A stretch of 64,000 bases of DNA from an uncultured Nitrososphaerales archaeon (GCA_963695855.1 CAVOHZ010000003.1:288001-352000), one strand, 5' to 3'; counted from the stretch's first letter, positions 7,811-37,543 are shown. Notes: generated by a model not told the origin, from the letters alone. Translations and numbers: made by a program.

Positions 7811-8497
7811 ATGAATAATAAATCTTTTGTGATGATTTATGGTTTACTCTTAGTCAGTATACTTTCTTTTCCTAATGTCTTTGCGCAAATTAATGCTAAT
7901 TTTACAGTTAATAACGAGATTCCCCAACCTCCAGTTCTTAAACCTAAAGTAGATGTTTCGATAGACGGAACCTCTGCTGATGATAAAATTCGAGGAGGGG
8001 AAGGAGATGATAAAATATCTGGTAAAAAGGGTGATGACATATTAAGCGGACATGAAGGAAATGATGAGCTTGATGGAGGATCTGGAGATGATCAGCTTGA
8101 TGGAGGATCTGGAGATGATCAGATTGATGGAGGATCTGGAGATGATCAGCTTGATGGAGGCGTAGGGGTTGATGAACTAAAGGGAGGAAAAGGAGAAGAC
8201 CTCTTTATTTGTGATGAACAAGATATAGTAATTGATTTTAATTCTTTAGAAAATGATGAAAAACAAGGTAATTGTGAAATTATTGATAGAGCATTAGCGG
8301 AAAAACCCCCATTTTCAGGATTTGAAAATAATGAAAGAGAGGGTTTCAATGATGGTTTCAATGATGGTTTCAATGATGGTTTCAATGATGGTTTCAATGA
8401 TGGTTTCAATGATGGTTTCAATGATGATTTCAATGATGGTTTCAATGGTGATCAGTACAATCCTTATCACGGAAATCCTTATGACCGCTTATATTGA
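7811..8497 (+). CDS. Secreted RTX/hemolysin-type Ca2+-binding repeat protein with GFND repeat tail
   Basis: Signal peptide ending VFA-Q, GGxGxDxL nonapeptides and a C-terminal (GFND)n tail. Confidence 0.85.
   Translation: MNNKSFVMIYGLLLVSILSFPNVFAQINANFTVNNEIPQPPVLKPKVDVSIDGTSADDKIRGGEGDDKISGKKGDDILSGHEGNDELDGGSGDDQLDGGSGDDQIDGGSGDDQLDGGVGVDELKGGKGEDLFICDEQDIVIDFNSLENDEKQGNCEIIDRALAEKPPFSGFENNEREGFNDGFNDGFNDGFNDGFNDGFNDGFNDDFNDGFNGDQYNPYHGNPYDRLY
8342..8449 (+). repeat. 12-bp tandem repeat (ggtttcaatgat), about 9 units, encoding GFND
   Basis: Directly visible; two units carry single substitutions. Confidence 0.95.
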
Positions 8498-8680: not shown

Positions 8681-9472
8681 TTGAATAAAATTTTATTTAT
8701 TTTTGTATTAGGTGTATTAATTTCGATGATATTTTCCTTAAATTTTGGCAATGCGCAAACAAATGCAACTACACTTGTAGAAAACCAGGCTGAGGATGTT
8801 AATAATTCATATATATCCACTCCAAAAATAGATGTTTTCATTGAAGGAACATCTGTTAATGATAATCTCAAAGGAGGATCAGGCAATGATGGCATATCCG
8901 GAGAAACTGGAGATGACAAACTTCTAGGAAATAATGGAGATGACGATATTGATGGTGGAGAAGGAGATGACATACTCGATGGTGGACCGGGTAAAGATAA
9001 ACTAAGAGGTGGAGCAGGGTATGATCTTTTCATCTGTGATAAAGACGATCAGCCTATAGATTTTGATTCAGACGACAAAAAACAAGGCCCCTGTAAGGCG
9101 ATAAAGAAAGATGATGACAACGATGACAAGAAGAAGAAGAAAGATGATGACAACGATGACAAGAAGAAGAAGAAAGATGATGACAACGATGACAAGAAGA
9201 AGAAGAAAGATGATGACAACGATGACAAGAAGAAGAAGAAAGATGATGACAACGATGACAAGAAGAAGAAGAAAGATGATGACAACGATGACAAGAAGAA
9301 GAAGAAAGATGATGACAACGATGACAAGAAGAAGAAGAAAGATGATGGCGAGATGGCGGAGATGGCGGAGATGGCGGAGATGGCGGAGATGGCGGAGATG
9401 GCGGAGATGGCGGAGATGGCGGAGATGGCGGAGATGGCGGAGATGGCGGAGATGATTAATATTTTTTCTTAA
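8681..9472 (+). CDS. Secreted RTX-repeat protein paralogue with charged repeat tail
   Basis: Signal peptide; PKIDVFIEGT matches PKVDVSIDGT of the upstream paralogue; GGxGxD repeats; DLFICD shared. Confidence 0.85.
   Translation: MNKILFIFVLGVLISMIFSLNFGNAQTNATTLVENQAEDVNNSYISTPKIDVFIEGTSVNDNLKGGSGNDGISGETGDDKLLGNNGDDDIDGGEGDDILDGGPGKDKLRGGAGYDLFICDKDDQPIDFDSDDKKQGPCKAIKKDDDNDDKKKKKDDDNDDKKKKKDDDNDDKKKKKDDDNDDKKKKKDDDNDDKKKKKDDDNDDKKKKKDDDNDDKKKKKDDGEMAEMAEMAEMAEMAEMAEMAEMAEMAEMAEMAEMINIFS
9107..9346 (+). repeat. 33-bp tandem repeat x7 encoding DDDNDDKKKKK
   Basis: Unit aaagatgatgacaacgatgacaagaagaagaag, perfect copies. Confidence 0.95.
9347..9453 (+). repeat. 9-bp tandem repeat (ggcggagat) x11 preceded by one 8-bp defective unit
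   Basis: Directly visible; the first unit ggcgagat lacks one G. Confidence 0.95.
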
Positions 9473-11145: not shown

Positions 11146-12198
11146 TGTTGTACTTACTAACATAGGTTACAATTTCATTTACTGACATGGGTAACACTTT
11201 CTAGTTCTGCTAGGAAGTGTATAAAAAATAGAAATACAAACAAGATATAATTTAATTCATGAAAAAGAATGGACTGGAGATACGGTAACTGATATTTGTA
11301 CTAGATATCAAATATCCAGAAAGATATACTACAAGTGGAGGAACAGGTACCTAAAGTATGGAATAAATGGTCTACATGATAGAAGTAGAAAACCACACAA
11401 TATACAACCTGCAAAAATAACAAAAGAGATAGAAGAAGAAATATTGGATTTACGTATAACAAAAAGATTTGGATGTAACCGGATCAGATTCAGGTTAAAA
11501 AGACTAGAGGAGATGTCACTAAGTACAAGAATCATATACAAGATATTGAAAAGACATGGTCTGAATATCCTGGAATGCAAGATAAGGAATAAAAGAAAAT
11601 GGAATAGGTTTGCAATGAAAAAACCCAATCAAATGGTACAGATGGATATTTTAGGTCCTTTTTATCTAGAAAATTGTGCTCAAAAGAACTATTTTATCAG
11701 TTGTGAAGATGATTGTTCAAGAAAGGTATCAAGTGACTGGTCTGAAAGAAAAAGAAGCATAGATGTATTGCATGTACTAGAAGACTATATTGTAGAGAAT
11801 GGGAAACCAGAAAAGGTAATGCATGATAATGGTAAACAGTTTACATCCAGAATATTTAGACGTTTTCTACAACGTAATAACATTAAAGATAAATCCATAC
11901 CTGCCAGATATCCGCAACTACAGGGAAAGATAGAAGCATATAACAAGATAGTAAAAAACGAATTTTTAGCAGTAGAAAATATTCCTAATGTAGAAGATGG
12001 AAAGAGAATGTATTCCATGTTTGTAAAAGCATACAATGAAGAAAGAGAACATGGTGGCATCAATGGTCACACACCATCTGAAATGTTTCTTAGGAAAGGA
12101 AGATTAAATAATCATAATGGTAACAAGAAAATCAAGCAGCTAAAAAGTGTTACCCATGTTGGTAAGTGAATCTGTTACCGATCTATGTAAGTACAACA
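11146..12198 (+). mobile_element. IS481-family insertion sequence nested in IS110
   Basis: TGT...ACA ends; 12-bp perfect terminal IR tgttgtacttac plus a subterminal IR (catgggtaacacttt); 6-bp target duplication actacc/actatc with one mismatch. Confidence 0.92.
11217..12169 (+). pseudogene. IS481 DDE transposase (HTH plus integrase core), frameshifted at the 5' end
   Basis: ISRKIYYKWRNRY..G..GLHDRSRKPH; PNQMVQMD; DDCSR; HDNGKQF; PQLQGKIE. The GTG at 11217 is out of frame by 1 nt at an A6 tract. Confidence 0.85.
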
Positions 12199-13075
12199 AC
12201 TATCAAATCCAATTAAAACAAGAGCAATTGCATCAGCAAAAATAAAGACAGACAAAATAGATGCAGTAAAACTGGCAGGTTTACTGAGAGGAGGATTCAT
12301 ATCAGAATGTTATGTATCTAAAAAAACTATGGAAGTACGTGAGATGATAAGACATAGGATTGCATTAGTAAGAATGAGAACCAGATTGAAGAACAAGATC
12401 CATGGGATAATGCTTATGAAAGGAATGTGAATTAATAGTAACAATAATAGTACTGCTCGCTTCATAATAGAGTATATCAATAAACTACAAGCATTGAACG
12501 ATTATAGAATTGATGCTTACATTCATCTGATAGACTCATTTGATTATGAGATTAAACATGTATCCAAGCAGATTGCTGTATATGCAAAAGAAAAGAAGAT
12601 ATTGCAAGATTATTGTTGGTGACAGTACCTGGTATCGGATACTATTCTGCTCTTCTTCTTCTAATAAGTGAAATTGGCGATATTAACAGATTTACAGATT
12701 CAAACCATCTTTGTTCTTATGCGGGATTGATACCATCAACTCATAGTTCTGGTGGAATAACATATCATGGTAAAATAAATAAAACAGGCAGTAAATATTT
12801 GAGATGGATAATGGTTGAATGTGTAGGTTCTCATATCAGAACTCAACCTGACAGTAACATAACAAAATTCTATTATAGACTGGCAAAAAAGAAGGGAAGT
12901 GCTAAAGCAACAGTTGCAGCATCATCCAAAATGTTAAAGATAGTTTACTGGATAATGAAAGAGAAGAGAGAATATACATATACAAATAACAACAACAATA
13001 ACAATAACAATGATAAAATTGAAAAAAAGAATTAAAATTATTATTTTAGTTAAGGTGATAACAAATTATTATTAC

Positions 13076-15284: not shown

Positions 15285-16250
15285 TTAATTGTTATCCCCT
15301 GTCATTTCAAGATTTTCTATTTTATCTATCAATTCGTTCATCTTGGCCGTGAAAGGGTGTTTTGGATGTTTCAATACAGTCATAAATTCGCTACTATCAA
15401 ATTGAATATCACAATAACACGGCACGCTACTCATTACGTCCATAGCAAGATCTTTTTTCAATTTCTCTATGGTTTGAGATTGTTCATTTAGAACTACAGC
15501 ATAATTGATTTCTGGCGTATACGAATAATCTTGAAGATTTGGAGGAAGACAATAGCCTGCAACTCTATTCAAAAGAAGATATGATTTAACTCCTAATTTC
15601 ATAAATGAAGAATAAATTTCACTAGCCATTCTTCTAGTTCCCTCTATATCAATACCATCCATTTTTAAAGAGAGTAAAATCATATCTGCAATAGCCAAAG
15701 AATTTATTGACCAATATCTTATTCCTGGGCTTGTATCAATTATGATATAGTCAATATTCTTTTTTGATGCCATTTCTTCTTTAATATGAATAAATTTTCT
15801 CAATAATTCTATTTTTGATGAGTCGCTACGTATCGCACCATCAAGTTTTGCTATCTCGTTTTTTGAAGAGTTAGAAAAGGAAACAAAAAGTTTACCCATT
15901 TTTAAATTTTCATTATGATCGGATTCCTCAGAGAATTTCTCTACCTTGTTGGTAAGGTCGTATACAACCTCATCAAAATCAGCTACTTCAAAAAGAAAGT
16001 CATTGATCCATTTATCTGGAGATGTGTTAAAATAAGTTTGCAGGCTTGGTGCATAAACATCCATATCCAAAAGCAAAACATTCAGTCCTCTACGGGTTAG
16101 CAGAGCTGCGATATTTGAACTCATAGTAGACTTACCTGTACCACCCTTGTAGGAATGGAAGGCAATACATTTTTTCAATAAAATTGTAAATAAGTCGTGT
16201 TTATTAAAATTTTCATATATTGGGGAATTCAGTAATAAATTTAATTCCAA
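15285..16250 (-). CDS. MinD/ParA-family ATPase (true start may be the TTG before KKCIAF)
   Basis: Deviant Walker A HSYKGGTGKS, LLDMD.YAPSL, YIIIDTSPG, LLLNRV. Confidence 0.9.
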   Translation of the reverse strand: MELNLLLNSPIYENFNKHDLFTILLKKCIAFHSYKGGTGKSTMSSNIAALLTRRGLNVLLLDMDVYAPSLQTYFNTSPDKWINDFLFEVADFDEVVYDLTNKVEKFSEESDHNENLKMGKLFVSFSNSSKNEIAKLDGAIRSDSSKIELLRKFIHIKEEMASKKNIDYIIIDTSPGIRYWSINSLAIADMILLSLKMDGIDIEGTRRMASEIYSSFMKLGVKSYLLLNRVAGYCLPPNLQDYSYTPEINYAVVLNEQSQTIEKLKKDLAMDVMSSVPCYCDIQFDSSEFMTVLKHPKHPFTAKMNELIDKIENLEMTGDNN

Positions 16251-16430
16251 AATAGATTAGACATTTGAAAAAAAATATTAAACTTTTATTTATTTTTGGT
16301 TGGTCTTGTTTTTCGATTTGAAAACTGGTTGTGAAACCTGTTGGGTATAGCCTGCCGCATTTTCTTTCGATAAAGATAATCAAATATGGGCTTCACCCTA
16401 TTTTTTAGGAAAATGTTTCCCATTATTTTA

Positions 16431-17735
16431 TGGATACTATTTTTCATTACCAATATTCATCATCTTCTCCTCCTCAATATGTGGTGGCATCTTCCAATTT
16501 GAAATGAATTCATAATATCAGATATTATAGTGCGGAATGTATTCTGTTCTGCTTGTAGTCTAAAAATGCATCTCTGATTGCTAGTTCTGCTTGCTGATAG
16601 TTCTGAAAAACATTTGATCAGGTGTACTCCTTCTTTAGTGTTTTATGGAATGATTCGATGTGTCAGTTTTGTTCCTGGGTATTGTAGTAGATATGTTCTA
16701 ATTTCAATCCCAGTACCGATATGGATTTTCTAAATCCTCTGTTTGTATACTCATCCGTTGTCTGTTCCTATTACCAGATCTTGTGGTATTATTTTCTTGT
16801 GTATTAAACAAGATTTTCTACCAATATTATAGCGTTCTCTTTTACTGCGGATAGATCAAAACAGTAATAGATCCATTCCCTTGTCAATAAATTAAATACA
16901 TTGAATAGGTAACCCCATCTATCAATACCACAGTGTAGGTAGGTGAGATCTGCTTCCAATACCTGGTTTGGTCTACCTACTCTTACATTGAATCCTTTTG
17001 ACCGTATAATTTTCTTCTTATTTTTAGATGATGTAATATAACCCATCTTTCTGAAGATTCTCTGTATCTGCTTTCTATTGATTGGTCTACCTAATAGTCT
17101 TGTCAACATTGAATTGTAGCCATTCTTCTTGAACCAAAAGTTGGTCTTCGAGAAATTTGCTGAATCTCTTTTTCTATTGTTTATGATTATCGAGGTGGTA
17201 GTGCTGCAGTTACTGCAGTCACTGCAGCAATATGATTTGTATGATATTCCTTCTGTTCGCTGTGCCGATTGTTGTACTAGTACATATTTTACTACAACTA
17301 GAATATGTCGGTGTCTATCTAATACCCTTAGTATCGATGTTTAGTATTGTTTTGACCACTGCTAACCTTTTCTTCCTGTTTTTAACGTTTTTTAAATGGA
17401 TCTATTGCTGTTGTCTGTTCACCAATGATCTTCTTTAGTCTCTCAATCTCTGGTTATTTGTTCTTGTTTATCGTATTGTGTTTACTGCAACCTGAACGTG
17501 TCATCCTGTCACCATCGATGAATTTGTGTTTCCAGTTGTAGACCACGTCTGCATTGAGATTGTATTTTTTATACGATTGAGCTACTTTGATATTCGTAGT
17601 CAATGATTTCATTACAATCCTTGTCTTGTCTTCTGGTCTCTACGTTCTAATATTATTCTCATTCTTTATCTTTAACATCCTGCATCAGTATGAAATCCTA
17701 TACTTGTCGTAATGATAGGAGTAAAAAAGTCTGCA
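16431..17735 (-). mobile_element. Heavily decayed IS3-family element (orfA HTH plus orfB integrase pseudogenes)
   Basis: orfA remnant RIVMKSLTTNI...KYNL...YNWKHKFIDG; orfB remnant INRKQIQRI...PNQVLEADLTYLHCGIDRWGYLFNVF; TG...CA ends with weak IR; flanking tta/tta; about 1.3 kb. Confidence 0.78.
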
Positions 17736-18161
17736 TTACAAGATGTTCTCATTTTCAATGGATCCAGACCAAATCCTGTCTTTTATTTAAGAAATTCTTC
17801 TGCTCTGTTATCAATATCCTTTGAATCTTTAACTGCGTTTCACAGATCGGTATCTAGCTCTGCTTTGGACATACTTCCAAATAGTTAACAATCTGTTGTT
17901 GTAATATATCTGGTTATTTGTATCAAAATTTTATCAGGCTTGAAAATACATATTTTCCAGTTTTTCAGAATATAGGAAATTTAGTTAGTAACTATAGTTT
18001 GGCATCATACACAAACTCGATGGCAGATCGCTTTTCCTATGTTAGATATGATAATTATCAAATATGATTTGAAAAAATAGGCTTATTGATATAAGTAATC
18101 TTATTTATTAGTTATAATCTTCTTTTAACATTATGATATTTGTTTTATAATCATTTTTAAA

Positions 18162-19748
18162 TTAAAATGTTATTTTTTTTGTCAAAGACTGGAACTTTAG
18201 AGGTAATTCAGAATTTCCAAAATTTTTGTCATCATATGCAGAATACATTTTTATCACCTGACCATGTTTTATCTGATGGTCTCCGATATAATGAATGATC
18301 TCTTTATATTTATCATCTAGTAGTATCAAATTTTCTGCCAGTGCTCCTTCTAACAAAATATGCCATCCATCACCTATATCCATCACTCTTCTTGCAAATA
18401 TAATACCAGGACCCCAAATATTCTGATTATTGTTAATATCGTTGACAATAAAAACTGACCCAGATGCCAATCCAATTCTGATACCAAGTTTGGAATCATC
18501 ATCAAAAGCATTTTCGTTGTGCTTGCGTATTTCATGATGCAACTGGATACTTAGTTCAAGAGGAGCTTCAGGGTTTGAGATGAATCCTATCGCCATACCA
18601 TCACCCGTTGCCAACACTTTTTTTTCAGTATTTTTTCGAAAAGCAGGACAGACAGATATCAAATTGTTTAGTAATTCTATCTTCTGTATCTGCTTTCTTA
18701 CAGATAACAACGGATTTGAAAGTCCTACTATATCTATAAAGAAAAAGTTTGCATCCAGAACTGTGGACTGTCCTATGTTAGTCATTCCAGAGTCTCCATA
18801 AATTCCATGCAATTTAATATAGACTTCTAAATGATTTTTATGAAAAGCCATATCTTGGTGAAAAACTGGATTTTCAGCAATTGGTATCTTACACACGCTA
18901 CAGATTAAGGATACTTTCTTTGATGAAGATGGTTCTTGAAAAAGCAATCTTCCAGTGCCGTTAGTATGGATATTGACCCATTTTGAAGGTATTTTTTCTC
19001 CTGTGAAAGAGGCTATTCGGATCATTCTTTTACTATCTTCAGCGTTTTTACCTTCCTCTATTTTCATTTCTAGTATTGTATCAAATAAGGTACTCACTTT
19101 TTCAATGATGTTCTCATCAAGTGTTAGATTATTTACCGTAAATATGGATTTGATTCCTTTGCTTTTTAGAAAGAGAGATAATAGATTAATAAAACGTAAT
19201 ACGTCTTTTTCCTCAAAAATTGTACATAGATGTGAAATTGAATCTAGTACTAAAACAGTATTATTACTATAACTATCTTTACTTGTTGAACCATCAATAG
19301 AAGCGAGATTCTCCTTATCTTTTGATGTTTCCAGACGATCAGGTCTATGCGAGTTTTGTTCTTTATTATTTTTACTATCTTTATCTATTTCTAAAAATCT
19401 TTGCTCGACTTCTTTAAGAGTTGAGAATAATTTATTATCTATGTTTAATTTATTGTGAATCTTTAAATCATCTGTATCCTCTTTTAGAAAAGGATTGACA
19501 AAAAGAGAATTAGAAAGAATTGTATCTGATATAACATTAGGAAAGAAATTTCGAAATTGTTTTAACATAATATTGGAACTTATGTAAATCACATGGTTAT
19601 TATTAGCCAGGGATTCAGCCAAAAAAGTTTTACAATAAGTTGTCTTGCCTACAGCCCTTGGGCCTATCAATAAGAAAAGATTATTGTCCTCTATCTCTTT
19701 ATATGATATTTTTCTTCCCAATAAGACATCAATACCAGGAATAGGCAT
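18162..19748 (-). CDS. KaiC/RAD55-like P-loop ATPase fused via a C-x2-C-x16-H-x2-H finger to a class III nucleotidyl-cyclase domain
   Basis: IPGIDVLL, Walker A GPRAVGKT, Walker B VLVLDS; CSVC..HKNH; FFFIDIVG, TGDG, IRIGL.SG, NIWGPGII.ARR. Confidence 0.85.
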   Translation of the reverse strand: MPIPGIDVLLGRKISYKEIEDNNLFLLIGPRAVGKTTYCKTFLAESLANNNHVIYISSNIMLKQFRNFFPNVISDTILSNSLFVNPFLKEDTDDLKIHNKLNIDNKLFSTLKEVEQRFLEIDKDSKNNKEQNSHRPDRLETSKDKENLASIDGSTSKDSYSNNTVLVLDSISHLCTIFEEKDVLRFINLLSLFLKSKGIKSIFTVNNLTLDENIIEKVSTLFDTILEMKIEEGKNAEDSKRMIRIASFTGEKIPSKWVNIHTNGTGRLLFQEPSSSKKVSLICSVCKIPIAENPVFHQDMAFHKNHLEVYIKLHGIYGDSGMTNIGQSTVLDANFFFIDIVGLSNPLLSVRKQIQKIELLNNLISVCPAFRKNTEKKVLATGDGMAIGFISNPEAPLELSIQLHHEIRKHNENAFDDDSKLGIRIGLASGSVFIVNDINNNQNIWGPGIIFARRVMDIGDGWHILLEGALAENLILLDDKYKEIIHYIGDHQIKHGQVIKMYSAYDDKNFGNSELPLKFQSLTKKITF

Positions 19749-28781: not shown

Positions 28782-30809
28782 TTATCCTGTGGTCGTTTCA
28801 ACATTATATTGATCAAATGTGAATTTTCTTTTTCGACCAAAAGGCTTGAAAGGATTTCCGTTACCATGATAAAATTTTGAAAAGAATTCAACATAAATCA
28901 ACCTAGCCCCCTGAATGCCTGGTTCGAATACACCAAGGATGATATTAAAAATGTGACCTATAAAGAAGATTGATATTCCTAGAATAACATGGGGAAGTGG
29001 GTTATCTATGGTTCTAAGAAAAATATGATCAATTACGTCAGCGAGTATAATTGACGCAAGCATTATTCCTACAATTCTAGTATAGGAAAGTATATGACTA
29101 ATTATGGAAGGTAATTCCATCAGAGCCCGAACACCTTCACCGTAAAACATCAATCCTAACCCCCCAAGTATCAGCGCAAAATAAACAGCTCCCGTGATAC
29201 TACCTGTTGGGCTTATATTTTGATGTGCTATGAGTGCCAATCCTAAAAGAGATATTCCCCAGCCAAACGCAAGCCATCCAATTTTGCCGATTGCATGTTT
29301 TTTCTGTCCTTCCCTTAGAGCATTTAGTATTCCCAGTACAAGCCCAAATGAAACCATACCCAGACCTATATACCCACTTATTAGCAATAATTTACGTAGT
29401 CCAAATGTACTAATCGGGTCGAGCAGCGCACCGTCAGGTGGCAAACTGAATCCAAATGTTTCATTTAGAAATGAGAACAGGTATTGATTTAAGTGAAATC
29501 CAAAATAAAGATTGAAACAGAATCCAAGTATAATTGTAAAAATACATCCAGGAATTATTGCCTTGGCTAGCTTCACCATTTGTGTAGGTCTTAAGATTGT
29601 CATTGCAAATTTCCGTAAAAATTTTGGCATTATAGTAAGATTACGCTTACCACCTTCTACCCTTCTTATGACCCATTTAGAGACAAGTAATATAACTATA
29701 CCGTATCCTACGTCACCTATCATCATACCATAAAAAAATGGAAAAATGAAGGCGAACATCACCGTTGGATCGAACTCTTTACCAGAAGGCAAAGAGTAAA
29801 ACCTAATAAATGATTGATAAACTTTCAATTTTTTTGGGGTGGCCTGAAGAGTTGGAGGATTCTCTTTACTCTCCAAATCACACAAAATTGTTCCCTCAGT
29901 ATGTTTTTTAAAAGCTGTTTTTAGGTTTTCTATTTTTGGCTTTGGGACCCATCCTTCCAACGCAAAAGCATCTTCTGTTACTCCTAGATGATCAATGATC
30001 TCTAGTTTTCTATTTTCTATCTCAAGTTGTTCTTCTGCACCCTTCAGAAATTTGTAATGCATTCTGGAAATTTCAGTCATCTGATTATCAATTTGATTTA
30101 ATTTTGATGATAGAGTATTGCTAATATTTTTCTGATTTTGAATAATAATTTCTGGTTTGCCTTTAAGTTTTGGAACGGCCTCTAAATTTACATTATGTGA
30201 ATTAACCGCTGATGCCAAGGAAGCCGATCTAAAGGTTGGAGTAGTAATAAGAACAAAATGTGTTATTTTGCCAGCCTCTTTAGGAATTATAATGATGTCC
30301 GGACTTTCAGATTGTAATTCCTTCCTAAATTCTGGAAATTTATCAGAGGCAACACGTCCAAAGTACGAACGGGCGAAGGATAGATTTAAAATATCGAAAT
30401 CTTCATGAAAGAAAGAAAACTCTTCAACCAGTTTGATATTGTTCTCTGCCTCTCTTTTCTGTGTAGTCAGATTATCCTTTTCCCTTTGCAGAGACGCAAT
30501 TTTACTATCAATATCAAGAGACTTTAATGTCGAAATCAATTCATTTAATGACAAAAATCCAGATTTCCCGACTATTTTTGTTGGTGGAAGAGAGCCAAGT
30601 AATCCTTTAATCCTCAGTAGTTGATCAGAAATTTCATTATGAAATTCACTTTCACGTTCTCTAGCAAGAAAGGATTCTGTTGTTTTTGAAAGAGGTTCGA
30701 GGTGTATTACATTCATTTCATGTAAGATTGTAAGAATTTGTTGTCTAAATTTTTTTAGCCCTACTATAGCTACTCGAACCATAGGAACTGGTTTAAGTAT
30801 CGTAGACAT
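28782..30809 (-). CDS. atpI: A/V-type ATP synthase subunit I (a)
   Basis: EGWVP, PPT, E.DPT, FFYGMMIGDVGYG, SHILSYTRI, RLIYVEFFSKFY.G.G.PFKPFG. Confidence 0.97.
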   Translation of the reverse strand: MSTILKPVPMVRVAIVGLKKFRQQILTILHEMNVIHLEPLSKTTESFLARERESEFHNEISDQLLRIKGLLGSLPPTKIVGKSGFLSLNELISTLKSLDIDSKIASLQREKDNLTTQKREAENNIKLVEEFSFFHEDFDILNLSFARSYFGRVASDKFPEFRKELQSESPDIIIIPKEAGKITHFVLITTPTFRSASLASAVNSHNVNLEAVPKLKGKPEIIIQNQKNISNTLSSKLNQIDNQMTEISRMHYKFLKGAEEQLEIENRKLEIIDHLGVTEDAFALEGWVPKPKIENLKTAFKKHTEGTILCDLESKENPPTLQATPKKLKVYQSFIRFYSLPSGKEFDPTVMFAFIFPFFYGMMIGDVGYGIVILLVSKWVIRRVEGGKRNLTIMPKFLRKFAMTILRPTQMVKLAKAIIPGCIFTIILGFCFNLYFGFHLNQYLFSFLNETFGFSLPPDGALLDPISTFGLRKLLLISGYIGLGMVSFGLVLGILNALREGQKKHAIGKIGWLAFGWGISLLGLALIAHQNISPTGSITGAVYFALILGGLGLMFYGEGVRALMELPSIISHILSYTRIVGIMLASIILADVIDHIFLRTIDNPLPHVILGISIFFIGHIFNIILGVFEPGIQGARLIYVEFFSKFYHGNGNPFKPFGRKRKFTFDQYNVETTTG

Positions 30810-30827
30810 GTTATTCTCTCATCCTAT

Positions 30828-31154
30828 TCACATCTTAGAAAGCAGGATTTCTATTATATTCATTATATTTTGTTTGTCAGAATTGAAAGAGATGGATTTG
30901 GATTTTTTTTCTGCATCCGCAAGAATCTGCTCAGCCTCTTTAGAAGCTTCCTGCTTAGCATGTTTAACACTTTCTTCAACCATTTTTTTTCCTTCTATTT
31001 TTGTTTCAGAGATAACGTTTTCTAGCTCGTCTTGTAAATTTTTAACATCTTGCTCAATAGAAACCCTATGTTTTTCAATTTCTACCTGTACTTGATCTTC
31101 CTTTTCTTTAATTCGCTTTAGTATAGATATATAATCTTGCGGAGAATCTGACAT
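30828..31154 (-). CDS. atpH: A/V-type ATP synthase subunit H (G)
   Basis: Coiled-coil EA...A..EAE.I pattern; operon position. Confidence 0.85.
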   Translation of the reverse strand: MSDSPQDYISILKRIKEKEDQVQVEIEKHRVSIEQDVKNLQDELENVISETKIEGKKMVEESVKHAKQEASKEAEQILADAEKKSKSISFNSDKQNIMNIIEILLSKM

Positions 31155-31330
31155 ATTTTTAAGCTCCTAAAAATTGTTTACCTATAAAGAATAACAAAAC
31201 TGTTGTTCCTATGATATTTCCAATCTTAAAGGCTCTTCCAATGATATAAAATTTTTTTTGCTTGTCGTTTGCAAAATTTCCTTTAGTGTTATTATTTTTA
31301 TTATTGTCTTTATCCTTATTATTATAACTA

Positions 31331-31996
31331 TTATGCATGAATCTCTATTTCCTCCTTCTTTCGAATCATTTCTTCTCTTTCTCCCATTTTCCTCTTTACA
31401 GTTTTCAACATAATGAATGTATCCCGTTCGATCTCATCAAGTCTAAAAGTAATGAATTTCACTGCAGCTAACAGTCTAGGAATCAAGATATTTTCTATTG
31501 CATTATATTTGCGCTTTGTTCTCTCTATTTCATAAAGCAATTTCCTCAATGCAGTTTCTTTCTCTGCTACCTCTAAAACTATTTTATGAACCTTTTGGTA
31601 GGTTCTTAATGCTTCGTTGATAGATGCCGGGAGTTCAAGTAAATGTTCAGCAAGTAATTCTCTTTCCCCACCAGTAATTTTGGGGATGTGAACGCCCATT
31701 ATACTCTTTGATTCTATCTGTAAATTTCTCATTTGCGATATTTTCATCGCCTCATTTTCGAGTTGCATTGTACCAGCCAGCATCTCAGCCATTCTGATAC
31801 TTTCATAGCCTTTTATCAGTTCAGACTGTAAACTACCTCTTAAAGCCGCTGCAGTCTTGCTTGTATTAAAGAATTCAAGAATTAAAGCTTGACGTTTTAG
31901 TTTTAGGAGATTCAAGCCTTTCTTTGCAATCAAAATTCGACGTTTTGTACGTATATATTCAAGGCGAGTTGGTCTAATATCACTAGCGACGGCCAT
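31331..31996 (-). CDS. atpD: A/V-type ATP synthase subunit D
   Basis: PTRLE...AKKGLNLLKLKRQAL; EIERTKRKYNAIENILIP. Confidence 0.96.
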   Translation of the reverse strand: MAVASDIRPTRLEYIRTKRRILIAKKGLNLLKLKRQALILEFFNTSKTAAALRGSLQSELIKGYESIRMAEMLAGTMQLENEAMKISQMRNLQIESKSIMGVHIPKITGGERELLAEHLLELPASINEALRTYQKVHKIVLEVAEKETALRKLLYEIERTKRKYNAIENILIPRLLAAVKFITFRLDEIERDTFIMLKTVKRKMGEREEMIRKKEEIEIHA

Positions 31997-32006
31997 TATT
32001 CACCAA

Positions 32007-33410
32007 TCATGCTCCTTCTGTCCCTGTTTCTACAAGAGCCTTCTTTCTATATTTTGTAATAAATTCCGACTTTATACGTTTCAATTCGGATTCTGGCAGA
32101 TCACTTAAGAGGTCCCACCCAATATCTAGCGTCTGTTCAATCGATCTATTTTCATTTACTCCCTGATTTACGAATTTACGTTCAAAATTATTAGCAATTT
32201 TAACAAATTTTCTATCAGTATCACTTAATGCTTCCTCTCCGACTATTGCGGCCAATCCCCTAGCATCTTTTCCTTGGGCATATGTTGCATAGAGCTGATC
32301 AGCTAGATTTCTGTGATCTTCCCTTGTTCTACCACTACCGATCCCCTGATTCATTAATCTTGAGAGACTTGTTAGTACATCAACTGGAGGTTGAATATTC
32401 AATCTGTTCAGATCTCTACTCAAAACTATCTGACCTTCTGTAATATATCCAGTAAGATCGGGTATAGGATGTGTAATATCATCTGCTGGCATAGCAAGAA
32501 TTGGAATTTGGGTAACAGAACCCTTTCTACCTTTAATTTTTCCTGCACGTTCATAAATTGAGGACAGATCTGTATACATATAACCCGGGTATCCCCTTCT
32601 TCCAGGGACCTCTTCACGTGCTGCGGAAATTTCCCTTAGAGCTTCACAATAATTGGTCATGTCTGTGAGTATAACTAACACATGCATCTCGCGCTCATAG
32701 GCAAGAAATTCTGCTGTTGTTAGGGCAAGTCTTGGAGTAAGTATACGTTCCATTGAAGGATCAGATGATAGATTTAGGAAAAGAACACTTCTACCAAGTG
32801 CTCCACTTTCTTCAAACTGATTCACAAAGAAATTAGCTTCTTCACTTGTAATACCCATTGCAGCAAATACTACAGAAAAATTTTCTGAGGTTCCAAGAAC
32901 TTTGGCTTGTCTAGCAATCTGTGTTGCTAGTAAATTATGTGGTAAGCCAGCACCGGAAAAAATAGGAAGTTTCTGTCCTCTGACAAGAGTATTCATCCCA
33001 TCTATGTTAGACATGCCTGTCTGGATAAATTCAGATGGTTCTTCTCTAGAATAGGGATTTATTCCAGAACCTACCAAATCAAATTTTTGTTTAGATATAA
33101 TTTTCGGTCCATTATCTCTTGGTTTTCCCAATCCGTCAAAAGTTCTTCCGAGCATTTCGTCAGATACGGAAATCATGGCGGTTTCACCCAAGAATTTTGT
33201 TGAAGTTCCGCTAGTAGAAAGTCCATATGTTGCTCCAAATACTTGAACAACTGCCAAGCCTTGTTTTGTATCAAGTACTTGTCCTAAACGACGTTCTCCA
33301 TCTGCTAACTTTATCTCCACCATCTCTCCGTAGGCTGCATTATCAACACCTTCAACAAAAATCAAAGGACCAGCTATCTTGGATAACGTTTTAAACGCTA
33401 CATTAGACAT
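32007..33410 (-). CDS. atpB: A/V-type ATP synthase subunit B
   Basis: [18 protein letters not shown]; [18 protein letters not shown]; [14 protein letters not shown]. Confidence 0.98.
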
Positions 33411-33412
33411 TT

Positions 33413-35179
33413 CTAAAGTGTTACCTCCAGCAACAAATTATCATACTGTTGTTTCATATTTATCTTGATCTCATTAATTAATTGTTCAACCTCTTCTTCT
33501 TTTGTCCATTTCATCTTTGATAAAAGTTTTCGTGCCTCAAGGGAACCAACCTTTGAGGATGGAACCCCTTTCTTTATAGCTTCAGCTTCCATTCTTCCAA
33601 ATTCTAATATCATAGAGAGCATCAAATTCTGTTTTTTGATAGAGGTGTAAGTATCGACCTCATCGTAAGCACTTTGCTGAAGATAGTCTTCTCGAATAGA
33701 TCGTGCAGTATCTAAAATACCTTTTTCAGGTTCAGGTAATGCATCATATCCTATCAGTTGAACAATTTCTTGTAATTCTGACTCCCTTTGCAAAATTTCT
33801 AAAGCTTCCTTCCTATGCGGAATCCATTCAGAAGAGACATTGTTGTTGTACCAGTTAGTCATATCATCAGCATACAAGGAATAACTTGTTAGCCAGTTTA
33901 TAGACGGGAAGTGCCTTCTTGAGGCTAAATTGGCATCGAGCGCCCAAAATACTCTTGTAACTCTTAAAGTATTTTGAGAAACAGGTTCAGAAAAGTCTCC
34001 TCCTGGTGGAGATACTGCACCGACTAAAGTCAGAGAACCCACCCGCTCTTCGGGAGATATTACTATTGCCTTTCCTCCCCTTTCATAAAATTCCGCTAGT
34101 CTTCTTCCAAGGTAAGCGGGATATCCTTCTTCTCCAGGCATTTCTTCCAGCCTGCCTGAGATTTCTCTCAATGCTTCAGCCCACCTTGAGGTACTATCAG
34201 CCATCAAGGCCACGTCATATCCCATGTCTCGATAATATTCACCCATCGTAATACCAGTATAGATACTTGCTTCACGGGCTGCAACAGGCATGTTCGATGT
34301 ATTTGCAACAAGAATTGTTCTCTCCATTAATGGTCTTTTTGATTTTGGATCTTCCAATTCTGGAAAAGTAGTGAGAATCTCTGTCATTTCGTTTCCTCTT
34401 TCACCGCATCCAATGTAAACGATAACACTACTGTCTGCCCACTTTGCAAGTTGCTGTTGAGTTACTGTTTTTCCACTTCCAAATGGTCCTGGAATAGCTG
34501 CTGTCCCACCCTTTGCTACTGGAAAAAAGGTATCAAGAACACGCTGTCCTGTAAGCAAGGGTGACTCTGGTGCAAGTTTGCGAAGAACAGGTCTTGCCAT
34601 TCTTACCATCCACCAACTTGATAAACCAATATCCTCAGTACCGGTATTTGTTTTCACTTGTGCAACATTTTCATTAACTGTGTATTTCCCTTCTGTTATT
34701 TCAGAAAGTTGACCACTAATACCAAATGGAATCATTATTTTGTGACTTATCAATGGAGTTTCTTGAACTTCACCAATTATTTCACCTGGAGAAACGTTTT
34801 CACCATTTTTCTTGATCGGGATAAAATCCCATTTTTTATGTTCGTCTAAAGCGGGAATAATATTGCCTCTACTGATAAAATCACCGCTTTTCTCCCTTAA
34901 TACATCGAGTGGACGCTGAATTCCATCATAAATTGACGTCAACAATCCTGGTCCAAGCTGCATTGATAGAGGTCTCTTTGTGTTGATTACTTTCTCTCCA
35001 GGTCTAAGCCCTGTTGTATCTTCGTATACTTGTATGGTGGCCTTATTACCGTCAAGACGGATAATCTCTCCGAGCAAACCTAAGTCTCCAATTCTTACAA
35101 CATCATACATTTTTGCTGCTTCAACGTCTGTTGCTACAACTACTGGACCCGAAATTCTCGAAACAATAGCAGTTGACAT
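33413..35179 (-). CDS. atpA: A/V-type ATP synthase subunit A (no intein)
   Basis: [41 protein letters not shown]. Confidence 0.98.
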
Positions 35180-35199
35180 ACTAATAATTCACTCCTTCA

Positions 35200-35544
35200 T
35201 CATCCCATTTTAATACTTATCCCAAGTACACGTTTAGCCAACGCCGCGATCGATTCTTCCTGAACACTTCCTTTTAAAGAGGGCATAAATAAAACCAATG
35301 GTTCAATAGATCCTTCGACCCTTGTTCTGAATAAGTGTGGAAGAGAAGCACTAACAAACTGACTAGCGATTATCAAGTTAAACTTACGAGAGAAGAAAAT
35401 ACTTTCCATAGTTTTCAGGGCCTCATCTGCTTGGTTAACTATGTATGTATCGTCTATTCCCAATAGGCGATAGCCCATTACAAGTTCTCTTTCACCTATT
35501 ACAGCAATAGCACCATCTGATTCTGATTTTTGTTTAGTTGACAT
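35200..35544 (-). CDS. atpF: A/V-type ATP synthase subunit F
   Basis: IAVIGERELVMGYRLLGI; C-terminal RVLGI. Confidence 0.93.
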   Translation of the reverse strand: MSTKQKSESDGAIAVIGERELVMGYRLLGIDDTYIVNQADEALKTMESIFFSRKFNLIIASQFVSASLPHLFRTRVEGSIEPLVLFMPSLKGSVQEESIAALAKRVLGISIKMG

Positions 35545-35550
35545 TTTATA

Positions 35551-36618
35551 TCACTCCAAAAGCAGCATTGATTTTATACGTTCAACGGGGATATCATAAC
35601 GTTTTCCATACGCTATTCTTTTTATGTTGTCCCATTCAGATTCTGCAGTTAAGATAAAATGAAAAATTGTTCCTATTGAGAGTGCTATATTTTTCAATCT
35701 TTTTACATATGTTTTAATAATAAATTTATCCAACGCCAGCTCAAAATCTATTAGACTGTTGGTCTTGATAAAGGTATCCAATAATTCATCTAACTTGTAG
35801 TAATCTTGTATTTTCCCTACAAATTCATTAATATTTTTTAATCCAAAAATATCAAGCAAGATATTCAATGGAATGTTCCCCCCTTCGATAAGATGTTTAT
35901 TTAACAATTCTCGATCCAGATTGGAATCCCTAGCTTTTAGTACATTTAAAATGTTCTTTTTATCTATTTGTGCTCTAAATAACTCTCTAATTACTCCCTC
36001 ATCACCTTGAAAAAACTTTAAGGATTCAAGTAATGACTTGTAATAATATGATTGAAGATCAGCCATCATAGGACCAAGGTCGGCTGTTTTTTGATAAGCA
36101 TCAAGATGTTGCATCAATATGGTTCCATATCTATATTTTATGAGTTGATTCACGACACCCTCTACATTGGTTTGCGACAAAATAATTTTCATTTCATCAT
36201 GTGCAATATTTCCCGCTGAGATTCCTGCAGGAACATTTCTACTAGATACCAGAAAATGTTCTGTTTCCGTTATTGCACGTCCTATTATTTTTGAAGATAA
36301 AATTAATTCTATATTATGAATATCCCACTTTAAAAGATAGGCTCTGACTGCAGCCCTTCCACTGAAGGGTGTTGCTTCAAGAGCAATTTTGTTTATATCA
36401 ACCATATGTCTATTGAGAGCTACTTCTAAAAGTTCTGGTGGCGAATATAGAGCTGCTGCTTTTTCTATTTCTGGACCATACGATGTAGGTTCAAGCATTC
36501 TAATAATTTCAGCAACATCTTTAGCTTGAGCAAGACTTAAAATAAAATCCTTAGATAGAAAGCTCATCGAGAGTGCCTGTAATCTTCCAAAAGAAGAGGA
36601 ATATGATGAGGTTGTCAT
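35551..36618 (-). CDS. atpC: A/V-type ATP synthase subunit C
   Basis: KWDIHNIELIL, IDKKNI, E.E..NIKRIAYGK; operon position. Confidence 0.92.
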   Translation of the reverse strand: MTTSSYSSSFGRLQALSMSFLSKDFILSLAQAKDVAEIIRMLEPTSYGPEIEKAAALYSPPELLEVALNRHMVDINKIALEATPFSGRAAVRAYLLKWDIHNIELILSSKIIGRAITETEHFLVSSRNVPAGISAGNIAHDEMKIILSQTNVEGVVNQLIKYRYGTILMQHLDAYQKTADLGPMMADLQSYYYKSLLESLKFFQGDEGVIRELFRAQIDKKNILNVLKARDSNLDRELLNKHLIEGGNIPLNILLDIFGLKNINEFVGKIQDYYKLDELLDTFIKTNSLIDFELALDKFIIKTYVKRLKNIALSIGTIFHFILTAESEWDNIKRIAYGKRYDIPVERIKSMLLLE

Positions 36619-36619
36619 A

Positions 36620-37183
36620 CTACTTTATCATTCTCTCAAGAAGAAAACTTTTTACATCATCTTCATGAGTTCTTAATAACTCTTCAATGGTGAGATCGAG
36701 CTCTCTTGTTCCATTATTATCCTCTGCTAGAATTCCTCCGATAGTATCGATAGTTGCTCCGAGTGTTACGTTCATAGCTTTAATAGCCATACTATCATCA
36801 ACATTAGAATGAATTACTACGTTCTTACCCAAATTCTTTTTTGCATGGTTGACCATCCTTTCCAGAGTTTTTTTGTATTCCGGTTTCTTGGTATAATTTT
36901 TTAATTCTTGTCTTATTGTATTAAAGGTGGAATCCATGTTTTCATTAATTGCATCAAATAGGATCTTTTTTGCGTTTAACCTAGCTGTCTCCACTATCCT
37001 AGCCGCATCTCTTTGAGATTTTACTTTTGCTTCATTAGCATAAAACTCTTCGAGCTCTTTTATTGTAGTCTCCTTTGATCTTTCAATAGCTGTTTTTTTT
37101 TCAGCAAAAGAAGTATCAATGATATCTATTTTTCTTTGTTTCCTCTCATCAATCTCTCGCATGAAAGTGAACAGGCTTGCCAT
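36620..37183 (-). CDS. atpE: A/V-type ATP synthase subunit E
   Basis: N-terminal coiled coil; IGGILAE...DLTIE; operon position. Confidence 0.9.
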   Translation of the reverse strand: MASLFTFMREIDERKQRKIDIIDTSFAEKKTAIERSKETTIKELEEFYANEAKVKSQRDAARIVETARLNAKKILFDAINENMDSTFNTIRQELKNYTKKPEYKKTLERMVNHAKKNLGKNVVIHSNVDDSMAIKAMNVTLGATIDTIGGILAEDNNGTRELDLTIEELLRTHEDDVKSFLLERMIK

Positions 37184-37198
37184 CTAACAAGTCGCCAC

Positions 37199-37543
37199 TT
37201 AGAGTATTCCTAACAGTAGAATTATTCCTAGCACGAAACCGATAATCCAAAGAGTCTCAGGGATTACGAAGAAGAATAGAACTTGTCCAAACTTCTCTGG
37301 TTTCTCTGCTATTATCCCCATTCCTGCCGCACCTATACCTTGCTGAGCATTTCCCGTACCTATAAGACCACCTGCAATCGCTATTGCTGCCGCAATTGCC
37401 AATAATGGCTTCGTAAAATCTGATTTAGTTGCTGCTGATGTCTCTTGGGCGAACACTTGTGTAGAAGATAACGTAAATACAGCTATTGCCAATCCTGCAA
37501 TTATAGTAATAATTGACAATTTTGAACCATTATATCGCATCAT
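37199..37543 (-). CDS. atpK: A/V-type ATP synthase proteolipid subunit K (c), single hairpin with signal-peptide-like extension
   Basis: AQQGIGAAGMGIIAEKPEKFG...IPETL. Confidence 0.95.
   Translation of the reverse strand: MMRYNGSKLSIITIIAGLAIAVFTLSSTQVFAQETSAATKSDFTKPLLAIAAAIAIAGGLIGTGNAQQGIGAAGMGIIAEKPEKFGQVLFFFVIPETLWIIGFVLGIILLLGIL

Follow-up and report, generated by a model that had tools for sequence, protein, structure and literature searches.

A stretch of 64,000 nucleotides from an uncultured Nitrososphaerales archaeon (GCA_963695855.1 CAVOHZ010000003.1:288001-352000), referred to in its full length as the window, carries two intact genes on the same strand, one encoding a MinD-type ATPase and the other a protein (the fusion) in which a KaiC-like ATPase domain is followed by a zinc knuckle and a class III cyclase-homology domain. 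We see about an even chance that the two constitute a conserved two-gene signaling module of the Nitrososphaeraceae, the soil ammonia-oxidizing archaea. The linkage of the gene pair is the main new result; the fusion itself has already been machine-labeled by annotation pipelines. A MinD-like gene was found at 63 of 80 loci that encode the fusion, in three gene orders, and this adjacency backs the functional link that the initial annotation had guessed from the co-orientation of the fusion with a MinD bearing unusual cysteine motifs. The pair and its spacer comprise:

18162..19748, minus strand: fusion gene, intact open reading frame (ORF) of 528 codons (528 amino acids) encoding a KaiC/ArlH-like domain, a predicted zinc knuckle and a class III cyclase-homology domain
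18939..19748, minus strand: KaiC/RecA-like P-loop domain of the fusion, residues ~1-270
18795..18911, minus strand: predicted C2H2-type zinc knuckle linking the KaiC-like and cyclase domains, with C283, C286, H303 and H306
18180..18770, minus strand: class III cyclase-homology domain, residues 327-523
15285..16250, minus strand: MinD-like gene, intact 321-codon ORF on the same strand as the fusion gene, encoding a MinD/ParA-fold ATPase
16288..17939 (ends approximate), unstranded: decayed IS3-family insertion in the spacer, ~1.65 kb, with no counterpart in the related locus L002

Linkage of the Two Genes

A genome scan recovered 219 stretches that encode a relative of the fusion, from which 80 loci were kept and searched with the MinD-like protein (tblastn, E ≤ 1e-5). 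Relative to the fusion gene, the MinD-like gene is located as follows:

Upstream, same strand (most gaps 46-150 nt): 46/80 loci
Upstream, divergent: 15/80 loci
Downstream, same strand: 2/80 loci
Not found: 17/80 loci, 12 of which have less than 1200 nt on at least one side

When only loci flanked by 1200 nt or more on each side are counted, the MinD-like gene is present in 45 of 50, and of the 63 loci that have both genes, 60 show a gap of no more than 300 nt. Clustering of ORFs across the loci recovered the fusion in 79 sources and the MinD-like protein in 61; no other neighbor family occurs in more than 20 sources, and shadow ORFs lying within the fusion gene account for the remaining clusters that are widely shared.

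The gene orders are distributed along the phylogeny of the fusion. In an IQ-TREE analysis of 72 fusion proteins, the divergent order forms one clade of 14 rows (support 100/99), and the window groups with L001 and L002 as sister to L003 and L004 (100/100), within a larger set that includes the divergent clade (96/95); the remaining branches carry the same-strand upstream order. Since the divergent order and the order of the window lie in separate clades, the adjacency has outlived at least two rearrangements. The ancestral order is the MinD-like gene followed by the fusion gene, probably as one operon, and in the clade of the window it is the fusion gene that comes first. At L002, a locus that is 95% identical to that of the window and free of the insertion, the MinD-like gene follows ~310 nt after the fusion gene, so that the adjacency also holds in a related genome lacking the IS3 element. 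Relative to L002, both genes of the window are under purifying selection, with ratios of nonsynonymous to synonymous substitution rates (dN/dS) of 0.21 (fusion) and 0.12 (MinD-like gene).

The commonest further neighbor is a receiver-only (CheY-like) protein, which is confined to one clade: in the clade with the divergent order its gene is convergent with the fusion gene and located just downstream of it (20 loci, including L005:10891-11349(-) and L007:8655-9122(-)). It could represent a clade-specific third component.

The Fusion Protein and Its Family

Pfam, profile matches and Foldseek searches with a predicted model agree on the three-part architecture that had been read from positions 18162-19748, and both the KaiC-like and the cyclase domain are identified by profile as well as by fold. 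The Pfam KaiC family (PF06745) matches with E 2e-9 and 37.6 bits, above the cut-off of 26.6, and Guanylate_cyc (PF00211) matches residues 335-474 with E 2e-4 and 21.4 bits, slightly below the cut-off of 21.9; many members of the fusion family carry PF00211 above cut-off in their precomputed annotation. The AlphaFold model of the fusion, computed with 41 sequences, has a mean predicted local distance difference test (pLDDT) score of 81.5.

A word-indexed search, in which 8000 candidates were scored, returned 1112 homologous proteins at E ≤ 0.001. Among the 120 homologues listed, query coverage is 90-100% and identity 42-95%, those with a named organism are Nitrososphaeraceae, and many bear the JGI label "archaellum biogenesis ATPase FlaH/class 3 adenylate cyclase". 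The fusion is thus a Nitrososphaeraceae-wide family and not a singleton. The statement in the initial annotation that no characterized system has this architecture therefore stands in one respect, as no characterization was found in print, but the architecture is common in Nitrososphaeraceae and already machine-annotated.

An exhaustive search of 1.84 billion representatives gave 2808 matches at E ≤ 0.001, 1389 of them at E ≤ 1e-10; about 25 of the 150 matches listed are full-length, and the rest cover only residues ~330-520. A FastTree phylogeny of the cyclase domain was built from 158 of 254 sequences (P0001-P0120 thinned to one in five, rows of fewer than 150 residues dropped), and all 41 fusion rows fall in one 45-row clade (support 98) together with three fragments and one other row. 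Because all fusion rows share this clade, the fusion arose once, and its source was a large cyclase subfamily, divergent and characterized by a Leu/Asn base pocket. When split forms were sought with the N-terminal 325 residues, the five matches were two fragments of the same family and three distant stand-alone KaiC-like proteins (24-26% identity), and Atlas searches with both proteins returned only their own Nitrososphaerota families and generic MinD/ParA clusters. One assembly (DATFBJ01) has two fusion copies, L009 and L012, one with and one without a MinD-like neighbor; paralogy may explain some of the loci that lack this neighbor.

The Cyclase-Homology Domain and Its Active Site

In Foldseek the C-terminal domain superimposes with a root-mean-square deviation of ~3 Å on Rv1900c (template modeling (TM) score 0.82), Ma1120 (0.79) and the C2 domain of mammalian adenylate cyclase (1azs_B, 0.74), and 3mr7 is matched as well. 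A profile of the domain made from 20 mostly single-domain relatives retrieved 45 PDB cyclase sequences at E ≤ 1, with Ma1120 as the best (E 1.9e-13), and also matched rhodopsin guanylyl cyclase and AC9; the profile was required, as a single-sequence search of the PDB with the cyclase domain gave no match.

Adenylate cyclases select the base with a Lys/Asp pair and guanylate cyclases with Glu/Cys. We take the register of the N-x-A-x-R motif to be the one that puts Ile450 at the position of the canonical Asn. A census of the active site in 146 rows of the fusion family and 124 rows with other architectures gave:

D339 (IDIVG), metal-binding Asp: fusion family Asp 143/146, the other 3 gaps; other architectures Asp 115/124
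D383 (TGDG), metal-binding Asp: fusion family Asp 143/146, the other 3 gaps; other architectures Asp 119/124
R454, transition-state Arg: fusion family 144/146; other architectures 119/124
K494, gamma-phosphate Lys: fusion family 143/146; other architectures 113/124
Position 379, base-selecting Lys/Glu: fusion family Leu 141/146; other architectures Leu 79 and Ile 14 of 124
Position 443, base-selecting Asp/Cys: fusion family Asn 143/146; other architectures Asn 104/124
Position 450, canonical Asn: fusion family Ile 143/146; other architectures Ile 58, Asn 49 and Val 11 of 124

Thus, both metal-binding Asp residues are kept, a Leu stands at the purine-selecting position, and an Ile replaces the catalytic Asn, all as first read from the window. 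The family-wide conservation of D339, D383, R454 and K494 argues for an enzyme rather than a relic. The atypical residues are not peculiar to this gene: Leu, Asn and Ile at these positions are traits of a large divergent cyclase subfamily that is found in many architectures. The depositors' specificity mutant of Ma1120 differs from the wild type by K to E, D to G and A to Y, and in the window protein these three sites correspond to Leu379, Asn443 and Arg453. At the canonical Asn position Ma1120, a mycobacterial cyclase that is active and structurally solved, has Ala, and the missing Asn is therefore no proof of a dead enzyme. Since the residues are subfamily-wide and Ma1120 also lacks the Asn, they predict neither inactivity nor a pyrimidine product.

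Residue 380, which adjoins the base-pocket Leu379 and is near the second metal-binding Asp, is Ala in the clade of the window (L-A-T-G-D-G; the window protein and P0001) and Pro in at least 90% of the family (L-P-T-G-D-G). Among 30 relatives with partial matches (residues ~330-520), a Pfam scan found PF00211 in 28, of which five also contain a protein kinase domain (some with FHA), six NB-ARC or AAA_16 with TPR (two also CHAT), one TPR only, four a methyltransferase and one a cupredoxin, and 11 have no other domain. A further group, P0145-P0155 (~380-405 amino acids), has an N-terminal cyclase domain with the Leu/Asn pocket, 47-50% identical to that of the window, followed by ~200 C-terminal amino acids without a Pfam match.

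The KaiC-Like Domain and the Zinc Knuckle

A profile of the N-terminal 280 residues, made from 17 family members, matches KaiC best (8zn5, E 1.7e-14) and also PH0284, SSO2452 and FlaH, and the best Foldseek match of the domain is FlaH (4yds, E 1.9e-10, target TM score 0.68), with KaiC and PH0284 matching as well. Pfam and the model contain a single KaiC-like domain only, with no CI/CII duplication, and the NCBIfam equivalog for ArlH does not reach its cut-off (31.2 bits versus 215). A variable insert at residues ~90-165 is disordered, with pLDDT below 50 at residues 134-160.

The Walker motifs, initially read as intact, are conserved in the 139 family members: K35 of Walker A (GPRAVGKT) is kept in 137 and D169 of Walker B (VLVLD) in 138. 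The replacement of the K-x-R finger (ASFTG) was likewise recovered, as the profile alignment places S-F-T-G (residues 247-250) opposite K-M-R-G of KaiC, so that the K-x-R-G sensor/arginine finger is absent from the domain of the window; at position 249, 66 of the 139 members have Thr, 45 have Lys and five have Arg. In KaiC-type ATPases the catalytic Glu is located after strand 2. Here, strand 2 is followed by S-S-T/S-L/M-T (residues 59-61 being T/S-L/M-T), and the members have no common acidic residue at positions 57-61. We regard the KaiC-like domain as degenerate and as probably binding nucleotide but hydrolyzing it poorly, in the manner of the iKaiC domains mentioned in PMC5847659.

Between the two large domains, the C-x2-C-x16-H-x2-H motif noted initially is present and conserved (in the same 139 members C283 in 139, C286 in 138, H303 in 129, with Asp in the other 10, and H306 in 127), and the model of this region shows a beta-hairpin at residues 295-302 and a helix at 307-317. 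The four residues are thus predicted to form a single C2H2-type structural zinc knuckle. The LIM-like reading of the motif did not hold: there is one C2H2 set, a second finger is absent, and no LIM or other zinc-finger Pfam family matches the fusion at E ≤ 1.

The MinD-Like Protein

By fold, motif, catalytic Asp and Walker B, the partner protein is a MinD/ParA deviant Walker A ATPase. It is matched by AAA_31, ParA and CbiA in Pfam, and its predicted model (predicted TM score 0.80) matches archaeal MinD (1hyq and 1g3q), Soj, ParA and FlhG in Foldseek. The best NCBIfam model is a KGGVGR-variant AAA domain (75 bits versus a cut-off of 90), and the models for cell-division MinD were not reached (minD_arch 42.9 bits versus 201.75, minD_bact 31.9 versus 212.9). 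The protein has the deviant Walker A KGGTGKS (K35, K40), D62 and D64, and the Walker B IIIDTSPG. Invariant in 36 sequences with identities down to 47% are K35, G36, G37, G39, K40, D62, D64, D172, C234, C278, C280 and H298, and the counterpart of D64 in Soj is the Asp replaced by Ala in chain 8jmj, whose sibling entry 8jml is named 'Soj mutant D41A'.

The unusual cysteine motifs that had drawn attention to this ATPase are a constant trait of its family. C234 (GYC) and C280 occur in 56 of 56 relatives and C278 (PCYCD) in 98%, and the GYC and PCYCD motifs are both present in 120 of 120 database homologues. They sit in the divergent C-terminal third, outside every alignment to a solved structure in the PDB, and residues 231-248 are modeled with low confidence. 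PCYCD may replace the I-P-x-D turn of MinD, the profile alignment to MinD and Soj structures stopping before the cysteine region. The three cysteines may constitute a metal or redox site. The true start of the protein is probably the TTG at 16178 (297 amino acids) and not 16250, since the family consensus starts with MxKCIAF, most homologues have 289-297 amino acids and residues 1-24 of the long form have pLDDT below 50.

Proposed Mechanism and Alternative Explanations

Class III cyclase domains are active only as dimers, and MinD/ParA-type ATPases form ATP-dependent dimers. In the module that we propose, the KaiC-like domain would oligomerize in an ATP-dependent manner and/or dock on the ATP-bound dimer of the MinD-like protein, and this would set the pairing of the cyclase domains and thereby turn on cyclic nucleotide synthesis, with a possible further input from metal or redox state through the cysteines of the MinD-like protein. 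Cyclic AMP (cAMP) would be the default guess for the product, with the Leu/Asn pocket leaving the base specificity open. The initial annotation overstated control by ATP or oligomer state and a positioning role, both of which remain inferences.

Several observations weigh against a functional module. Five of the 50 fully flanked loci have no MinD-like neighbor (L003, L004, L067, L070 and L072), among them L003 and L004, whose fusions make up the closest sister clade to that of the window, and L012, the second copy in the assembly of L009, has none either. A weak tblastn search (E ≤ 10) found no MinD-like remnants in these six loci or in L001. The pairwise identities of both proteins correlate with r = 0.97 (1378 pairs, 53 loci), yet such a correlation is expected for any two vertically inherited linked genes. 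Furthermore, with Ile in place of the canonical Asn and Leu/Asn in place of the base-selecting Lys/Asp pair, cyclase activity is not assured. The apparent lack of a catalytic Glu in the KaiC-like domain takes the place of that residue from the general motif and not from a tool alignment.

An unlikely alternative that makes use of these residues is that the cyclase domain is a pseudo-enzyme, retained for nucleotide binding or dimerization only, and that the pair is a scaffolding or positioning device powered by ATP, serving for instance pili, the archaellum or division, analogous to ArlH and the FleN/MinD regulators. The Ile, Leu and Asn substitutions are consistent with this, as is a KaiC-like domain that lacks the K-x-R finger and has FlaH as its best fold match, and in excerpts of PMC4858521 the regulation of archaeal type IV pilus systems is ascribed to FlaH-like and FleN/MinD-like ATPases. 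However, the near invariance of the metal-binding Asp residues, the Arg and the gamma-phosphate Lys, in the fusion family as in the wider subfamily, is hard to explain without catalysis, and active Ma1120 has no Asn at that position either. Moreover, the conserved neighbors of the pair at the 80 loci include no genes for pili or the archaellum, and the ArlH model remains far from its cut-off.

The linkage could also be inherited synteny without functional coupling, with the fusion acting as an ordinary stand-alone adenylate cyclase that has a regulatory N-terminal domain. The five fully flanked loci and the paralogue without a MinD-like neighbor fit this explanation, but we regard it as quite improbable, as the two genes have stayed side by side in three different orders and orientations amid a complete turnover of their other neighbors, and the short gaps of most same-strand upstream pairs are consistent with an operon.

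A more specific version of the proposed module, which we offer as a doubtful conjecture, would join both proteins in a complex whose cyclase is gated by ATP together with a metal or redox signal and whose Leu/Asn pocket yields a messenger other than cAMP or cyclic GMP. The MinD-like protein would sense this signal through its three invariant cysteines, perhaps with the help of Cys39 or the knuckle of the fusion, and the ParA-type partner would be a regulatory subunit instead of a positioning device. If true, the complex would contain the first second-messenger synthase defined in ammonia-oxidizing archaea and would tie metal status (copper, iron) to signaling.

Finally, a Pycsar-like anti-virus defense system made of the cyclase and its partner is very improbable: weak PADLOC matches (mad8, E 2e-5, to the N-terminal domain; PDC-M28B, E 9e-11, to the MinD-like protein), the fusion of related cyclase domains to STAND NTPases and CHAT proteases and the remnants of insertion sequences (IS) nearby hint at it, but generic P-loop similarity can account for the PADLOC matches, the window protein is not matched by the PycC model (E ≤ 0.1), no effector that has a cyclic-nucleotide-binding, TIR or membrane domain adjoins the pair, and the gene tree follows genera as named in the record titles (all rows titled Nitrosocosmicus in one 12-row clade) with both families in a housekeeping setting close to the A-type ATP synthase operon, which points to vertical core inheritance.

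Gene Setting and the Insertion Between the Two Genes

With a GC content of 27-38%, the window is ordinary chromosome of a low-GC archaeon. Further features are:

16804-17109, minus strand: transposase fragment within the insertion, 101 amino acids (NCBIfam transpos_IS3, E 7.8e-9, 35.2 bits versus a cut-off of 160)
17454-17612, minus strand: small ORF within the insertion
11444-12169, plus strand: rve integrase-core ORF, a mobile-element remnant just beyond the gene pair
12613-13035, plus strand: IS110-family transposase fragment, a mobile-element remnant just beyond the gene pair
28782-37543, minus strand: complete A-type ATP synthase operon (subunits I, D, B, A, F, C, E, K), 9 kb from the gene pair
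7811-8497 and 8681-9472, plus strand: two adjoining ORFs with RTX calcium-binding nonapeptide repeats (HemolysinCabind, E 1.7e-16 and 2.2e-10)

The spacer between the fusion and the MinD-like gene contains short ORFs only, one of them the IS3 transposase fragment, and the IS3 relic that had been noticed there is borne out by this fragment and by the ~1.65 kb absent from L002. The element is a relic, yet a true insertion relative to L002; a search for terminal inverted repeats found no clean ones. In the proposed history, an IS3-type element, now decayed, landed in a spacer of ~310 nt and left both genes unbroken. L001, whose fusion is 95% identical to that of the window, has a related insertion at the same spot (77% identical over 480 nt; L001:11821-12538), inside which its contig stops. 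It seems that elements have landed in this spacer repeatedly, or else that the species group is polymorphic for the insertion.

The area surrounding the pair is IS-rich (remnants at 11.4-13.0 kb), and the GC skew at 8-10 kb, around the RTX-repeat ORFs, is strongly positive. Other genes of the window encode TFB, receiver-domain proteins, NAD synthase and photolyase. Genes of the A-type ATP synthase operon are also located near the fusion in L004 and L024, which suggests that the chromosomal placement near this operon is loosely conserved.

Significance and Comparison With Known Systems

Archaea contain cAMP and other cyclic nucleotides, and we know of no class III cyclase of archaeal origin that has been characterized. 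Conserved and with its catalytic set kept, the fusion family is a concrete candidate for archaeal cyclic-nucleotide synthesis in globally important soil nitrifiers. According to a 2023 review, proteins for the synthesis, degradation or binding of cAMP have yet to be characterized in archaea (PMC10249747), and excerpts of another article list a class III adenylate cyclase among the clusters conserved in Nitrososphaeraceae (PMC13577086). For KaiC-like ATPases, the second component is usually unknown according to the accessible part of PMC4858521; the MinD-like gene would supply a defined second component for a KaiC-like "hub" protein, which is usually missing. In addition, the analysis flags a large cyclase subfamily with a Leu/Asn pocket (the 1389 representatives at E ≤ 1e-10). 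Full-text literature searches, which do not extend to supplementary tables, found neither the fusion nor the pair described, although the 2017 KaiC-hub paper may list the fusion, and they turned up no characterization of the Leu/Asn cyclase pocket.

Among known systems, the fusion shares with class III cyclases that have N-terminal regulatory domains (Ma1120, Rv1900c, Rv1625c, and photoactivated and STAND-linked enzymes) the fold, the metal-binding Asp residues, the Arg and the Lys, as well as a regulator that precedes the catalytic domain. It differs from them in the Leu379/Asn443 pocket and the Ile at the Asn position, in a regulator that consists of a KaiC-like P-loop domain and a predicted zinc knuckle, in the conserved MinD-like partner gene and in its archaeal lineage. 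With the archaeal KaiC-like hub ATPases (iKaiC, ArlH/FlaH) it has in common a single RecA/KaiC-like domain with Walker A and B and a signaling output, and KaiC-like or inactivated iKaiC domains fused to signaling domains are described in excerpts of PMC5847659. In contrast to these hubs and ArlH, the output of the fusion is a cyclase, S-F-T-G stands in place of K-x-R-G and the gene is located outside an archaellum operon. The NCBIfam models for ArlH and KaiC score far below their cut-offs on the fusion, and an identity as the archaellum protein ArlH/FlaH was rejected on the score of 31.2 bits and the lack of archaellum genes among the conserved neighbors.

The MinD-like protein shares with MinD, ParA and FleN ATPases the fold, KGGxGK[ST], the catalytic Asp and Walker B, but it has three invariant cysteines, and its partner is the cyclase fusion and not MinC/MinE, ParB or FleQ. 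Pycsar PycC proteins are, like the fusion, class III-like cyclases with non-canonical base-pocket residues, but membership in Pycsar was rejected, since the PycC model has no match at E ≤ 0.1 and no adjacent effector that binds cyclic nucleotide monophosphates is among the conserved neighbors. The PycC specificity residues given in the excerpts of PMC11224242 (F100/R142/Q144, F60/K104/F109 and Y50/D94/R97) show no correspondence to L379, T381 and A386 of the fusion when mapped, by our inference, through their offset from the metal-binding Asp. The same excerpts describe a regulatory C3H zinc site in PycC clade D; that site is C-terminal, whereas the predicted zinc knuckle of the fusion lies N-terminal to its cyclase domain and no effector gene lies beside it.

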